Below, piece by piece: positions 37,723 through 64,000 of a DNA stretch of 64,000 bases. Numbering within the stretch: the stretch's first letter is position 1; each line of letters starts with the position of its first letter. The notes under the pieces are model-generated. The model was not told where the DNA came from, did not search any database, and saw only the letters and a list, made by a program, of their open reading frames with translations. The translations under genes and the position numbers were made by a program. Origin of the DNA: a virus; IMG/VR virus record IMGVR_UViG_3300047678_000169, positions 16,239 through 80,238 of that record. The stretch is one strand, 5' to 3'.

Positions 37723-38127
37723 TGGTGGACCTGCGGGGAGTTGAACCCCGGTGTTTCATAAATTGCTCATCAGACATATACAAGCGTTAACACGGTGGAT
37801 ATGATTGTGGTTAGTAGTGTGCTCCACAAAAATTAGAGTCAGTAGTTTCTTCGTTGTTACAGTCTCACTTTCTCACAACGAACATATCAGCAGAGGTTGA
37901 CGTATTGACCCACTTATCTGCGTGGTGGAATACGGACTGCTCAGTTTATTAAGCAGCGACAGCCATAGCGGCTCCAACGTTCTTCGCCTTGCGGAGAAGT
38001 GTTAGAACATTTAGCTTAGCAAGATTTCTCTTAGCATTTAGTTTTTGTAATCAGGATTATGCAGGATGTTTACCACCTGCGCTTGCGTTCCGAGCTCAAC
38101 CCATAAAGTCGAATCCTGGACAGGCCC
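37723..38127 (-). ncRNA. ssrA: tmRNA
   Basis: 5' GGGCCUG..GGAUUCGAC; 3' T arm plus CAGGUCC-A-CCA with G3.U70; tag ORF 38035-37949 (AKRNLAKLNVLTLLRKAKNVGAAMAVAA) after the UAAAU resume context. Confidence 0.93.
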
Positions 38128-50797: not shown

Positions 50798-51057
50798 TAC
50801 TGATTTTAGTCAAGATATAAAATAGACCCACTTTTTATTAATGTTGGTGGGAATCATTATTATCATTACCGTCTGTTACGACAAGTAGTGTTAACAATAA
50901 CAACACGATTGTCGCTTGTATCATAAAATTTTGAATCAGGCCCGTCTCAGTTGTGAACGCTCAAGAAGAGCGAACCTTTAACCTGTGGTCAGACTGAATC
51001 GCGTTTTTCAGCCCAAATATACGAATCTACACGTAAGCTGGTTCGGTCTAATTCAAA

Positions 51058-51136
51058 TGGTGGGAAGTCAGCGAATCGAACGCTGTTATTTCGCTCTTCA
51101 GGCGAACGCTGAAATGACCACACTAGCTCACTTCCC
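51058..51136 (-). tRNA. tRNA-Phe (GAA)
   Basis: UUCGC CU GAA GA GCGAA, CCA. Confidence 0.85.
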
Positions 51137-51992: not shown

Positions 51993-52646
51993 TCAAAGAT
52001 GTTCCAATTTGGATTGAACTTTCTTAATGTCCATCTTATGAAGCTTGAAAAATGCTATCATCGAAGCTGGAGCCAAAAATGTCATGTATTGGTCAGGAAC
52101 AATTGATGTCAACTGAACCAATGCGTTCTTTAGAGCTTCATTCTGAATGAAGTTCGGTAAATTTTTGAGAAGAATGATTAGAACCATCAACACAATCGGC
52201 CAAATTCCTTTGGACATTAATGGATTGTAGCTCTTCACAATGGAACTGAATCTAGCATTGTGTATCTTCATCAATTTAACTGGAATTGATGGGTGTAAAA
52301 TCAAAATTTGCTTGAATACTTCTTGATTGAAAATTGCGACCTTCATTGGAGTTATCGAAACGATAGAAGCACTTCTTGGTGTTCCTGACAATAGCGACCC
52401 TTCTCCAATCAAATCATGAGGCTTGAGGATAATCTTGGCCGGTTTTCCAGCTTTCAATACTTGAGCCTTTCCCTCTAAAACGAGATACATTGAGTCTCCG
52501 GTGTCTCCTTCAACAATGAAGGTGACGCCAGTGGAATATTCTTTGATTTCACACAATGCCGCAACCTTTTTTAAGGTGGGATGTGGAACGTCTGAGAAAA
52601 GAAATCCTTTACTCAATTCGTCTGGAGTAGTGGTCAATTTTGGCAT
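51993..52646 (-). CDS. Cyclic-nucleotide-binding domain protein with C-terminal TM segments
   Basis: EGDTGDSMYLVLEG, GEGSLL...PRSAS phosphate-binding cassette; no HTH. Confidence 0.88.
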   Translation of the reverse strand: MPKLTTTPDELSKGFLFSDVPHPTLKKVAALCEIKEYSTGVTFIVEGDTGDSMYLVLEGKAQVLKAGKPAKIILKPHDLIGEGSLLSGTPRSASIVSITPMKVAIFNQEVFKQILILHPSIPVKLMKIHNARFSSIVKSYNPLMSKGIWPIVLMVLIILLKNLPNFIQNEALKNALVQLTSIVPDQYMTFLAPASMIAFFKLHKMDIKKVQSKLEHL

Positions 52647-52697
52647 ATGACATAAGTATAATATATGCTATTGTAACTTCAATCCATTTTAAAAAAT

Positions 52698-52844
52698 TGG
52701 TGAGAACGCTGGAATCGAACCAGTTTTTCAGCACGTTTCAAGACTTACAATGAGTTTCTTCAAGCCTGTTCGAATTATGAGTCCGAGGATTTCGAAGCGT
52801 TTCAAATTGCTATCGCTGATGTATTACCAACCTACTCCATTCTC
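52698..52844 (-). ncRNA. 147-nt tRNA-like RNA with an expanded anticodon arm containing a CAU stem-loop
   Basis: Intact acceptor, D and T arms and CCA; ~70 extra nt inside UCAGC/GCUGA. Confidence 0.65.
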
Positions 52845-52848
52845 AAAT

Positions 52849-52933
52849 TGGTGCGGATAGAGGGACTCGAACCCCCAAGCCTTTCGGCACATGCACCTCA
52901 AGCATGCGTGTCTACCAATTCCACCATATCCGC
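52849..52933 (-). tRNA. tRNA-Leu (GAG), canonical
   Basis: Cloverleaf with V arm. Confidence 0.93.
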
Positions 52934-53598: not shown

Positions 53599-53684
53599 TG
53601 GTGCAAAGGACTGGATTCGAACCAGCGAAGCCTTACGGCGAAAGCTTATGAAACTCCCTGTTTTAGCCACTTACCTACCCTTGC
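53599..53684 (-). tRNA. CAU-anticodon tRNA with a long variable arm (identity uncertain)
   Basis: UU CAU AA loop; V arm GCC-GUAA-GGC; A73. Confidence 0.75.
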
Positions 53685-53695
53685 GTTAAATTAAT

Positions 53696-54028
53696 CAGAG
53701 AAGCTATAGCCGATGTTCTGTCCAGAACCGAAGTCCCTGACCTTACATTTCTCTATGAGACGTAAATTTTGCCTCATTCCAAGCTTTTCGCCGGGATGCC
53801 CCTACCTTAGTATGCAAACGAGCGACTCACGCTCTCTACAATTTTTGGGTTACTGCGGATGATGTGGTATTAACGAACCGCTTGTGTCCGAGAACCATAG
53901 ACCCTCCTGATTTGGACTCAGGCACTATGGCGGTTGGATGATACAGCATTGTTCTCCCAGCTACGAGTCGAGCAGCATCGAACTTCCTCTATGGTTTTCT
54001 TTCCCACAGCGTAAGGTCGCTTACTCTG
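53696..54028 (-). ncRNA. rnpB: RNase P RNA
   Basis: GAGGAAGUUCGAUG (CR I) and ACAGAACAUCGGCUAUA (CR V) form P4; P2 GACCUUAC/GUAAGGUC; P1 CAGAG/CUCUG. Confidence 0.88.
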
Positions 54029-54215: not shown

Positions 54216-54290
54216 TGGCTGCCCCCCAGCGAATCGAACGCTGATAAACCGAGTCAAAGTCGGCGATAATAACCGTTATATGAGAGAGCA
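54216..54290 (-). tRNA. tRNA-Gln (UUG)
   Basis: CU UUG AC loop, G73-CCA. Confidence 0.85.
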
Positions 54291-55088
54291 ATGTTTCTTA
54301 ATCTTCGGAACAACGATATGGTGTTCACGGCAAATTTCTTTTAAACGATTTGCACTTACACCATACAATTTTCCCAATTTTCGTAGAGAAGTTTTTGTTA
54401 CTTCGTCGGAAAGTTTTTTGAGGGAGTCGTCGTTCCATTTAATTTTTTGATTCCGTTTTTGTAGAGGAATGTTGACAACAAGTAACCCACAGATTTTTCT
54501 CAACTGGTGTTGGGTTATTCCGTGTTTTTTCTTAATGTCACTACAAGTTAACGTTAAACAATCTTGTCTAAATTCATCGGAGTCAAACCTATCTATGTAG
54601 ACTTTGTTCAACTTTAGATTAGAAGACTTCCCAGCGTATGTCGCTGTTTGTGAATGGCAATTTGGACACAAAAAACACAAATTTTCTATACGATTGTCTC
54701 TGTGGTTTCCGTTTTTATGTTCTAGCTGTAAAACTATAAGCTTGTTTCTCCATTCCGTTGTCAGTCCACATTCACATTTATACGGAACCAAATTAAACCT
54801 CAATATTAAGTTCTTTACTGTATTTGTGTTGGTATTACTATTCTCAACAAATACACTCTTACTCGCTTCATACAACGACCATTGACGATGTGTAAACTTT
54901 TTTCCCTTGTTTGATTTCAAATGCTCGGAATTTATTTTTAAAAATTCAATTCTTCTTTTAAGCGTCTTGTTATTAGCTCCCCTCGGTGGGAGGCCACATT
55001 TAATCAATACATCGGAATAAGATTTAGATTCCAGAACTATCTTTGTAAATTCTATATCACTTGTTTCGTAAATTCTACTGGTTTTCAT
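54276..55088 (-). CDS. HNH homing endonuclease
   Basis: CECG..W..LQLEHKNGNHRDNRIENLCFLCPNCHSQT; start MKTSR after TACTTAT. Confidence 0.88.
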   Translation of the reverse strand: MKTSRIYETSDIEFTKIVLESKSYSDVLIKCGLPPRGANNKTLKRRIEFLKINSEHLKSNKGKKFTHRQWSLYEASKSVFVENSNTNTNTVKNLILRFNLVPYKCECGLTTEWRNKLIVLQLEHKNGNHRDNRIENLCFLCPNCHSQTATYAGKSSNLKLNKVYIDRFDSDEFRQDCLTLTCSDIKKKHGITQHQLRKICGLLVVNIPLQKRNQKIKWNDDSLKKLSDEVTKTSLRKLGKLYGVSANRLKEICREHHIVVPKIKKHCSLI

Positions 55089-55162
55089 ACGCTTATAAGT
55101 ATGTAACGGAAGAACCAAAACGTAAATTATTTTACGCTTCCATTACACAATCGGGGAGCGTA

Positions 55163-55795
55163 TCAATTCAATTCTCTTGGGTCAATTGGCTGGCCTGGTC
55201 GTTTGTCTCCAAACAACTTGCAAAATGTGAAGTAAGCCTTCACTGCAACTGGCCACCAGAACCATGTAACTACTTGAGTATTCTCAACAATAAGTTTACG
55301 GTCTGTATCAAACCCTCTAACAAAAATTGGACCACCATTTGGGTTCTTACAGTTGATGAACTTAAATCTTCTGGTTGGTGGGCGACCTGTGTGAATAGCG
55401 TAGTCTCCCATGAGAACATCGTTGATTTCACAATTTTCAAAAGTAACATCACGAACACCAGCTTTCATGCCAATGTCACAAGTTTTGTTCATTGTAAATC
55501 CCTTGGTCTTCTTTCTAGTTCCATCATTCAAAAACTTACAGTCTTTGAAATAAATGTCTCCTCCACGAACCATATCGAAGGCTCGTTCTGCACCATTCTT
55601 GAATATGCAATTTTCAAAACGAAGATTGAATTTGAAGGAGGCTTTGAATCCCCATTCACCTGTCTTACCGTCAAATGTGCAGTTGGTATAAAGTGTATCG
55701 TCTGATACAGCTCCGTATGCTAAGGAATCCTTACCGAAGGTCTGTGGTTGGTCAAAAATTTGTCCGTCAATAGTTGTTGTAAAGCTCATAACCAT
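55163..55795 (-). CDS. Right-handed beta-helix (pectate-lyase-like) protein
   Basis: Repeated xFxNCxF coils. Confidence 0.65.
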   Translation of the reverse strand: MVMSFTTTIDGQIFDQPQTFGKDSLAYGAVSDDTLYTNCTFDGKTGEWGFKASFKFNLRFENCIFKNGAERAFDMVRGGDIYFKDCKFLNDGTRKKTKGFTMNKTCDIGMKAGVRDVTFENCEINDVLMGDYAIHTGRPPTRRFKFINCKNPNGGPIFVRGFDTDRKLIVENTQVVTWFWWPVAVKAYFTFCKLFGDKRPGQPIDPRELN

Positions 55796-55819
55796 AATTA
55801 TGAGTTATAACAAGTAAAA

Positions 55820-55895
55820 TGGAGCCCTCTGCTGGATTCGAACCAGCCTTTCAAGTTTACGAAACTTGCACATTCGCCATATATGTTTAGAGGGC
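55820..55895 (-). tRNA. tRNA-Thr (CGU)
   Basis: UU CGU AA loop, CCA. Confidence 0.85.
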
Positions 55896-55901
55896 GTAAA
55901 T

Positions 55902-55976
55902 TGGTGGTTCCGATGGGACTCGAACCCATAACCTGTCGCTTAAGAGGCGAAAGCTCTACCATTGAGCTACAAAACC
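55902..55976 (-). tRNA. tRNA-Lys (CUU)
   Basis: CU CUU AA loop. Confidence 0.88.
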
Positions 55977-56044
55977 ATATTTTGAACAAGAGGCATCAGA
56001 CTTGCGCTATGGACTTATTTACTGAAATTGTGCATTATTCAAAT

Positions 56045-56607
56045 TGGTGGACTAGTCGGTTATCACCCGAACACGCGATTTAGCTGGATTGCATTACTGG
56101 TTAATCGCCATCGTAGCCCGTAAATAGTGGACGTTCGGGACTCGAACCCGTATCTCTCTCCTCATCTGTCTTCACATCGGAAAGCGTGTTGCCATATCTT
56201 GGCGGAAGTTGCCTCTACACCAGACGCCCATAAATTAGTGACAAATCAGGCAGAATCGAACTGCCGCCCTATTTGATTCTGCACCAGCAGAAATAGCGGA
56301 ATCGAACCGCCCGAATCCTCATCGAGAGGATGTGCTACCATTACACCATGTTTTGTCAAAGTGGTGCGTTCGGAAGGAATCGAACCTTCGCCTGCTTACG
56401 CTGGTTACGCGTCGCCCTTCCAACATGGGCCTTGATACAAGTGCTTACCGCCTTCGAAGAGCAGAGTCACGTTCAACCATTTCCGCCACAAACGCAAATT
56501 GGTGAGTTACAGGAGGATTTGGCACCTCCACGAAGTTATTCCGCCGCTAACGGCAATGCTATTACCTTCGACCCCTTAAAGGCTGCGTCTTCTTCCGCCA
56601 TACACTC
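56045..56607 (-). ncRNA. Run of five aberrant tRNA-like RNAs (56045-56119, 56126-56229, 56237-56357, 56362-56495, 56500-56607)
   Basis: Each has paired ends and a T-arm-like hairpin but a non-canonical interior. Confidence 0.6.
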
Positions 56608-57631: not shown

Positions 57632-57722
57632 TGGCGGAAGATTGAGTATTCGAAACTCACCCGACTTTCATCGAGCAATCTGTTTAGCAAACAGTTCCAG
57701 CACCCTGACTGGTTAATCTTCC
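57632..57722 (-). tRNA. tRNA-Ser (GCU), 8/4-compatible
   Basis: GGAAGAUU/AAUCUUCC, AA linker, GAGU-UUCGAAU-ACUC. Confidence 0.78.
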
Positions 57723-57881: not shown

Positions 57882-57996
57882 TGGTGGACTAGGTGGGAAT
57901 CGAACCCACGTTTTCCGCTAGCGGAAGGACATTCCCACATCCCGTAATGGTGGAATGTATCGGAATCGAACCGATTATTTCTCCATAGACTAGCCC
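57882..57996 (-). ncRNA. Twin Ala-identity mini-tRNAs with swapped acceptor strands
   Basis: Two T arms and two ACCA ends; the acceptor strands pair only across the two units, both with G3.U70. Confidence 0.7.
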
Positions 57997-58001
57997 ACAA
58001 A

Positions 58002-58151
58002 TGGAGCCGATGATGGGAGTCTAACCTAGCAGATGAATTAGCTAACTTTGTCCAACTAATCAACATGTATTTTCATTGGGAGCTACCATTCCTTTCTACG
58101 ACATTTTCTTCAACTTAGAAAGTTGATGCTCTATCCTTGAGCTACACCGGC
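58002..58151 (-). tRNA. 150-nt tRNA-Arg (UCU)-like RNA with a large variable-region domain
   Basis: Normal acceptor, D and anticodon arms; ~75-nt insert. Confidence 0.7.
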
Positions 58152-58412: not shown

Positions 58413-58504
58413 TGGCGGAAGACTGAGTATTCGAAACTCAAGCGGGTTTAACACCGCTCTCACGACTTTCCAAGTCGGTCTAGAACCTATCTAGTTAATC
58501 TTCC
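58413..58504 (-). tRNA. tRNA-Ser (GGA), 8/4-compatible
   Basis: GGAAGAUU/AGUCUUCC, AA linker, 5-bp D stem. Confidence 0.78.
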
Positions 58505-61482: not shown

Positions 61483-62127
61483 TTATACTCTTCCTTTTCT
61501 GAATCCTCTTGGGAGCGAATCGGTTTTTAGAACTAACTTGCTAACAAGTCCGTTGGTAATCCAATGTTTTCCAAACGACGGATTTTTCTTACCGTCAAAC
61601 ATTCCTTGTTTTGCATCGCTCATTTTCTTTTTTGTTTCTTCTGAATGTTCTTTTCCTTGGAATGGATTTCCGTTTATAGACTGATATAACAGACTTCTAT
61701 TTGATAGTTTTTGAGTAAATTCTATTCTAAATTGTTCGTCGGTTTTATATTTATCCCACAATTTATTCGCCGCTGCCTTACCCATTTTTGTGTAGTGTTC
61801 TTTGGAACGATTTACTTTGTTTCCATTTTTTCCAGTTGAATTGATGTAATCATACCCACCATTTCCTCCTAATTTGATGTTGTATGTGTCATCTCTGGCA
61901 ATAAATTCTTCATCAACTATGTCGGTTTCTTTTTGGTTCATTTCTTCTTCCGTATTACACTCAAAAAGCAACTCTTTGACAAAGTGTTCTTTTCCATGTT
62001 TCTCTACTGCCCGACCAAGCAAAACTCCAGAGCCAAAATACTCATCGTCTTTGTTTTCAGTTTTGTGTTTTCCGACGTAAATTTTATTGTTCAGTTTATT
62101 GGTAATTTTGTAAATCAAGTAGTGCAT
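61483..62127 (-). CDS. Seg-like GIY-YIG homing endonuclease
   Basis: YLIYKITN..IYVGKH..YFGSG, YNIKLGG, NUMOD3 HSEETKKKMS. Confidence 0.9.
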   Translation of the reverse strand: MHYLIYKITNKLNNKIYVGKHKTENKDDEYFGSGVLLGRAVEKHGKEHFVKELLFECNTEEEMNQKETDIVDEEFIARDDTYNIKLGGNGGYDYINSTGKNGNKVNRSKEHYTKMGKAAANKLWDKYKTDEQFRIEFTQKLSNRSLLYQSINGNPFQGKEHSEETKKKMSDAKQGMFDGKKNPSFGKHWITNGLVSKLVLKTDSLPRGFRKGRV

Positions 62128-63956: not shown

Positions 63957-64000
63957 TGGTGGTTGTGGTGGGACTCGAACCCACCTGAGCTTGCATGTCG
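63957..64000 (-). tRNA. tRNA, probably Val (GAC), cut by the window edge
   Basis: 3' half with T arm and CCA; GAC lies at the edge. Confidence 0.6.

Follow-up and report, generated by a model that had tools for sequence, protein, structure and literature searches.

A tRNA-derived 147-nt element with a displaced methionine-type anticodon arm in the tRNA array of an uncultured jumbo phage

One unit of a phage tRNA array begins and ends like a tRNA but carries, in place of an ordinary anticodon arm, a 92-nt domain in which a CAU-bearing stem-loop lies far from its normal position. The question raised by this locus is whether such a gene still specifies a tRNA, either as it stands or after removal of the surplus sequence, or whether it is the remnant of a tRNA or the gene of a tRNA-shaped RNA that does not decode. 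An earlier note had proposed two answers, an elongated Met-type tRNA mimic or a tRNA with an unusual short intron; they are weighed here together with the other readings.

The window, by which we mean the whole stretch of DNA analysed (64,000 nt), takes up the final 64 kb of an IMG/VR virus record of 80,238 bp, whose CheckV completeness is 29%; only two runs contain it, both of moss-metagenome DNA and none of RNA. Between about 49 kb and the end of the window, ARAGORN called 33 tRNA genes on the minus strand; Rfam contributed tRNA matches beyond this set, and about 35 tRNA genes, all co-oriented, make up the array. This part of the window is the tRNA array of an uncultured jumbo phage. The element lies directly 3' of tRNA-Leu(GAG) (52849-52933, minus strand) across a 4-nt gap, the spacing between other array members being 4-12 nt by ARAGORN coordinates. 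No terminator was predicted between tRNA-Leu(GAG) and the element, and the spacer U at position -1 is compatible with an RNase P site. On the far side of the element, a promoter-like site, which is a consensus match only, may set the 3' limit of the element's RNA unit. The coordinates of these features are collected in Table 1.

Table 1. Parts of the 147-nt element and features around it (window positions; RNA numbering from the element's G1).
Feature	Window position	Strand	RNA position	Remark
tmRNA gene	37723-38127	-		separate from the 147-nt element
Promoter-like site TTGAAG-16-TATACT	52655-52682	-		consensus match only; between the element and the cNMP-binding gene
147-nt element	52698-52844	-	1-147	tRNA-type ends around a 92-nt middle domain
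Acceptor 3' strand CGUUCUC, discriminator A, encoded CCA	52698-52708	-	137-147
Variable loop AAAA and T arm CUGG-UUCGAUU-CCAG	52709-52727	-	118-136	T stem 122-125/133-136, 4 bp
Outer stem, 3' strand GCUGA	52728-52732	-	113-117
Insert, 82 nt	52733-52814	-	31-112	enclosed by the outer stem
Inner anticodon-type arm UCGGA-CUCAUAA-UUCGA	52770-52786	-	59-75	CAU at 52777-52779
Optional hairpin UUUGAA-ACGC-UUCGAA	52791-52806	-	39-54	competes with rod pairing 48-53/82-87
Outer stem, 5' strand UCAGC	52815-52819	-	26-30	normal place of the anticodon stem
G8 A9 and D arm	52821-52837	-	8-24	loop GUUGGUA with GG pair
Acceptor 5' strand GAGAAUG	52838-52844	-	1-7	pairs 7/7 with 52702-52708, one U.G
Spacer AUUU	52845-52848	-		between the CCA of tRNA-Leu(GAG) and G1 of the element

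Several protein-coding and RNA features accompany the array. Directly downstream of the element, a gene on the minus strand (51993-52646) encodes a cNMP-binding-domain protein (Pfam PF00027, E 2.5e-15), which is a singleton with no relatives at E<=1e-5 among 5.8 billion protein clusters and none in IMG/VR. A 1251-aa protein gave distant and partial matches only. Small genes are scattered through the array and include those of an HNH endonuclease (54276-55118, minus strand) and a GIY-YIG/NUMOD3 endonuclease (61483-62127, minus strand); endonuclease genes likewise lie among the tRNAs of T4 (segB) and T5 (hegC, hegD). The stretch 54628-55981, which overlaps the HNH gene, has about 75% DNA identity to tRNA regions of T-even-like phages, and the annotated features beneath these matches include HNH endonuclease genes. 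Also within the array, positions 53702-54024 (minus strand) gave a full-length match to bacterial RNase P RNA class B at 42.7 bits (E 5.7e-09), below the threshold of 97, and may represent a phage-encoded, diverged RNase P RNA. Finally, positions 63957-64000 (minus strand), cut by the window edge, match the 3' end of the tmRNA model weakly (E 0.48) and would represent another tmRNA-like end in addition to the tmRNA gene of Table 1.

The tRNA origin of the element is established by its ends. A strict tRNA-end motif, made of a T arm, a 7-bp acceptor and NCCA, occurred in 26 units of the minus strand (the element included), in none of the plus strand and 0.01 times per shuffled window; the element is thus certainly tRNA-derived, far beyond chance. 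Both ends are intact: the acceptor GAGAAUG/CGUUCUC-A-CCA was found as the earlier note gave it, with seven pairs, one of them U.G, and a 7-bp acceptor followed by ACCA is common to the element and every other array member. Nor is the element the artefact of one assembler, since an 8,973-nt Logan contig reproduces positions 52300-52913 with no differences and no joints; this contig comes from the same sample and so does not count as independent data. Among the DNA contigs covering the element, no insert-less variant was found.

The body between these ends is a different matter. The D and T arms had been described as intact, which holds for the canonical T loop UUCGAUU and the GG of the D loop; the stems are short, the D stem having three pairs (GUA/UAC, 10-12/22-24) followed by a G13.A21 mismatch, with A25 next, and the T stem four pairs rather than five, and in the core G8 and G14 replace U8 and A14. 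A 4-bp T stem is found in the element only (1/26 strict-motif units), and its body is the weakest and most degenerate of the 26. The short stems and G8 argue for a relic, that is, a disabled tRNA gene. Against this, G8A9 is shared with the tRNA-Phe(GAA) that ARAGORN calls in the same array, and is therefore a trait of the lineage and not damage.

Standard models fail to read the element as a tRNA. ARAGORN did not call it, whether introns were allowed or not, and the Rfam tRNA model RF00005 (29-bit threshold) gave no match at E<=10 in a 15-kb or a 159-nt search, whereas the other giant units of the array reach 36 bits with this model, a difference that again speaks for a relic. Of the tRNA cloverleaf, the 7-bp acceptor, the discriminator base and the CCA end are all present; directly after position 26, where a 7-nt loop on a 5-bp stem is expected, the stem holds 82 nt instead. 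Families of ribozymes, introns, riboswitches, tmRNA and Y RNA in Rfam did not match the element at E<=10. A tmRNA has an alanine-type tRNA-like domain (G3.U70), a tag reading frame and pseudoknots; the third pair of the element is G3-C70 and no tmRNA was called there, so this class was rejected. A bacterial Y RNA-like molecule (YrlA) was rejected as well, with no RF02553 match and no TROVE domain in the 80-kb fragment, itself a partial genome.

Other oversized units that keep acceptor pairing and CCA are found in the array, all on the minus strand. The first (56362-56495, 134 nt) scores 36.6 bits with the Rfam tRNA model; ARAGORN interprets it as Asn(GUU) whose anticodon is preceded by a 35-nt insert. 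In the second (58002-58151, 150 nt; 36.2 bits), the UCU anticodon arm is normal and the variable region contains an insert of about 70-75 nt. In the third (57882-57996, 115 nt), the outermost seven bases pair (GGGCTAG/CTAGTCC-ACCA), and a second T arm and a second ACCA lie inside. A further unit of 92 nt (58413-58504, minus strand), detected by the motif scan only and by neither ARAGORN nor Rfam, has a 5-bp T arm, a 7-bp acceptor GGAAGAT/GTCTTCC and GCCA; its acceptor resembles that of tRNA-Ser(GCU) at 57632-57722.

What does the middle domain of the element contain? The stem UCAGC/GCUGA, said to enclose some 80 nt, encloses 82 by count, and the UCGGA-CUCAUAA-UUCGA arm described within it is indeed there, displaced from the normal anticodon place by 33 nt on the 5' side and 42 nt on the 3' side. 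Among shuffled inserts, an anticodon-arm-like hairpin appeared in 3.9%, and one holding CAU in 0.04%. In a giant-virus MAG and a Chloroflexia MAG, tRNA-Met genes called by ARAGORN have this very 17-mer as their anticodon arm; since it serves called tRNA-Met genes, it is a workable, though rare, Met arm. The exact 17-mer had 20 genome hits in 596 Gb, only one of them in a tRNA-Met, a number about or below a rough chance estimate for a 17-mer in a search of that size, and it is uncommon in prokaryotes. MetRS recognises its tRNA mainly by CAU, and synthetases can bind anticodon-like arms of other RNAs (PMC9976931). The description of the element as an elongated Met-type tRNA mimic fits its tRNA body, its encoded CCA and a canonical CAU arm at the tip or in the middle of a 92-nt domain. 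In its unaltered form the RNA could hardly serve as an adaptor.

The alternative offered in the earlier note, an unusual short intron, was not supported. When single contiguous excisions were enumerated, none left a 7-nt loop with U33, position 33 always being A. Group I introns are about 200 nt or more, contain a P1-P9 core and are inserted in the anticodon loop; the 82-nt insert is far too short for one, and no Rfam intron family matches. The sole bulge-helix-bulge-like motif (41-84) is misplaced, as cutting it out would take the CAU arm with it, and a motif of this kind occurs in 22% of shuffles. The splicing endonuclease PF01974, RtcB PF01139 and T4-type RNA ligase 1 (Rnl1) PF09511 were all absent from the 80-kb record, which covers 29% of the genome; the Rnl1 profile gave no signal in any control genome either.

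A tRNA can be recovered from the element in silico if two segments are removed. Deletion of exactly 26-58 and 76-117 leaves 72 nt that ARAGORN, run at its default threshold with the real flanks kept, calls tRNA-Met(CAT). The element might accordingly be conceived as a tRNA-Met precursor, from which both pedestal strands are removed and the three remaining pieces joined into a 72-nt tRNA with CAU. A73 together with CAU is in line with methionine identity (PMC9976931), which suits this reading. So does the state of the only other CAU tRNA of the array (53599-53684, minus strand; 86 nt, with a long variable arm), the only one called tRNA-Met(CAU), whose anticodon stem is poor, three of its five pairs being G.U, which is unusual for a Met tRNA. 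However, maturation would require four cuts and two ligations, and we know of no such tRNA maturation in bacteria or phages. Moreover, the two segments to be removed pair weakly with each other, excision of a single segment never works, the insert falls in no known intron class, and the one bulge-helix-bulge-like motif is not only misplaced but at chance level. We therefore regard a precursor of this kind as improbable, and it is very unlikely that the element is a true tRNA-Met precursor matured by two-segment excision, along a route perhaps common to the other oversized units of the array. If true, the precursor reading would amount to a tRNA maturation route new to bacteria and their viruses.

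Folding gave little further guidance. Beyond the CAU arm, the insert shows no structure signal: the 92-nt domain at the anticodon position has a minimum free energy of -15.2 kcal/mol (z = +1.19, slightly worse than shuffles), and the whole RNA folds no better than shuffles either (z = 0.07). With the cloverleaf constrained, the lowest energy (-28.0 kcal/mol) is predicted for an irregular rod without branches that carries the CAU loop at its tip, whereas a branched form, which has one hairpin at 39-54 and another at 85-105, reaches -22.0 kcal/mol, 6 worse; the branched anticodon domain that had been proposed is thus not established. The unconstrained ensemble is mixed, the rod and branched helix sets both having pair probabilities of 0.3-0.5. 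In this free ensemble the inner arm reaches 0.44, the hairpin at 39-54 about 0.5, the rod helix 48-53/82-87 0.3 and the outer stem 0.07, with 0.57-0.97 for the acceptor and 0.03 for the D arm. Computed folds cannot separate the rod from the branched form.

The branched form matters to the idea that the RNA is aminoacylatable or ribosome-active as is, the inserts folding aside so that the CAU arm stacks in the anticodon position. Local hairpins at 39-54 and 85-88/102-105, with pair probabilities of 0.35-0.5, would allow this; in addition, the 3' segment sits where a variable arm would, and other tRNAs of the array have 70-nt inserts in the variable region. Yet the required form is the one that lies 6 kcal/mol above the rod, U8 and A14 are missing from the core, and a 33-nt insertion between D arm and anticodon arm is, to our knowledge, without precedent in working tRNAs. 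We consider activity as a tRNA in this state very improbable.

Relatives of the element were sought in several collections. A blastn search of 50,697 public phage records returned no relative, an exact 24-mer from the 3' end of the element was absent from IMG/VR, and a 20-mer from its 5' half was absent from JGI metagenome contigs. A two-anchor pattern (the CAU arm and the T loop 36-60 nt apart) retrieved just two ordinary tRNA-Met genes, a coincidental match. GroEL-bearing viral contigs (L002-L081), considered as possible relatives, proved unrelated, and model R1 finds nothing in the five largest of them. Within the 80-kb record there is no paralog of the insert. Within the array, the closest member to the element is the tRNA-Phe(GAA) gene mentioned above (51058-51136, minus strand; R1 31.9 bits), and the 5' half of the element scores 18.5 against it, the next best score being 16; paralogy between the two is only suggested by these comparisons. 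This tRNA-Phe is 79 nt long, with an enlarged D loop next to its G8A9. Seven nt after it, a 65-nt stretch (50986-51050, minus strand) whose ends pair and which has ACCA, but in which a T stem is lacking, matches R1 weakly (7.2 bits).

The most substantial of the alternatives is the relic. It holds that a former tRNA gene (Met by its inner arm, its body nearest to tRNA-Phe) was expanded around the anticodon arm by insertions or local duplications, and that its product, perhaps still transcribed and processed, is inert. Besides the degenerate body and the missing Rfam match, an insert no more stable than shuffles would be expected of such a gene, and the short repeats UUGAAACG and AGNCUUGAA, each present twice in the element, are compatible with slippage. 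The motifs UUGAAAC and UCGAAA, which the earlier note had called repeated, are present (the former twice, the latter once), but recurrence of this sort is near chance: p is about 0.05 for two copies of the 8-mer UUGAAACG and about 0.18 for three copies of the 5-mer UUGAA. Alignment of the insert with itself likewise gave an internal-duplication signal that is not significant (p = 0.09), which weakens the case for growth by duplication. Furthermore, the perfect acceptor pairing, the ACCA, the T loop and the inner arm are all intact, which is unexpected after long neutral decay, and dead DNA is usually purged from phage genomes. Considering these points together, we see the relic as a real possibility, although one that we think is probably not correct.

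The reading we prefer, at about even confidence, is that the element is a tRNA-derived gene whose product would be a stable, tRNA-shaped RNA that does not decode, some 147 nt long: a tRNA scaffold of natural origin that bears a 92-nt domain. Several observations count against it: the insert is no better folded than shuffles, the degenerate body fits decay equally well, about 4% of shuffled inserts hold an anticodon-like hairpin by chance, the searches for relatives were empty, and outside the tRNA core the sequence is unlike T5 RNA1 and T4 rnaC. We infer its transcription, processing and stability, as well as any function. As we envisage it, the element would be co-transcribed with the upstream ORF and tRNA-Leu(GAG) in the minus-strand array. 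RNase P would then cut after AUUU at G1, and the 3' end would be trimmed to the encoded A-CCA, steps that we propose because the acceptor/T-arm minihelix and the D/T loop contacts are kept. The tRNA body would shield the RNA, by analogy with engineered tRNA-scaffold fusions. In such a molecule the CAU loop would be separated from its usual site by many base-pair steps or by one junction, and would make no codon contact with the acceptor end placed in the peptidyl-transferase centre; MetRS, too, would probably be unable to grip the anticodon and the CCA end together. With the CAU loop out of reach, any function would be that of a mimic. One may speculate that this mimic presents its Met-type stem-loop, or another part of the insert, to MetRS, to a tRNA-modifying enzyme or to a host anticodon nuclease, and that the element acts, for example, as a decoy for some protein that reads CAU. 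Phage tRNAs are known to be under pressure from tRNA-targeting defences (PMC10264068, PMC11555353). If expressed, the element would be a candidate decoy for CAU readers such as MetRS, lysidine synthetase and the anticodon nucleases of host defence. Its present value is limited, since there is one copy of it, in a genome that is itself a singleton.

How does the element compare with RNAs and designs already known? The nearest to an ordinary counterpart would be the canonical elongator tRNA-Met(CAU), with which it shares A73-CCA, a 7-bp acceptor, the T loop, the GG of the D loop and a Met-type arm, and from which it differs in the displaced position of this arm, in G8, in its 3-bp D stem and 4-bp T stem, and in that no tRNA model calls it. 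Its features are also those of the tRNA-like stable RNAs of phages: it lies within a tRNA cluster in the common orientation, and joins a tRNA-like acceptor and T arm to a long insert that replaces or extends the anticodon arm. In T4, species 1 RNA (rnaC, 139 nt) and species 2 RNA (rnaD) are small RNAs that adjoin tRNA genes, and their roles are still unknown (PMC3014915). Similar to the element, rnaC combines a canonical T arm with paired ends, and long hairpins are inserted in it; in contrast to the element, rnaC folds far better than chance (z = -4.57 as against 0.07) and its annotated gene does not encode CCA. The two have no sequence similarity beyond the T arm, and model R1 matches rnaC in this region only (14.4 bits, E 0.16) and T5 RNA1 not at all, so that no homology to either RNA is apparent.

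T5 RNA1 (NC_005859 30501-30644, 144 nt) is similar in layout as well. Like the element, it lies inside a tRNA cluster on the tRNA strand, and its fold has tRNA acceptor, D and T arms with an anticodon-position stem that encloses a long hairpin. Its record describes a 'tRNA-like stable RNA with unknown functions', whereas the element is known from sequence alone. The two share no sequence similarity, and they differ in type: in T5 RNA1 the body is of class II type, with a variable arm, and the loop that closes its long arm does not resemble an anticodon loop, while the element is of class I and holds a canonical CUCAUAA arm. The last comparison is with a man-made object, the 'tRNA scaffold' of Ponchon and Dardel, in which the acceptor, T and D arms are kept and a hairpin replaces the anticodon stem-loop. 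E. coli factors recognise RNAs built on such scaffolds, which are processed in the manner of tRNAs and accumulate as stable molecules (PMC3753655). The element, if expressed, would be the natural counterpart of this design. It resembles T5 RNA1, T4 RNA C and the tRNA scaffold in layout and, judged by sequence, is not a homolog of them. It would thus extend the class of stable RNAs formed by T4 RNA C/D and T5 RNA1 to an uncultured jumbo phage, with the new twist that its cargo includes an intact methionine-type anticodon stem-loop.
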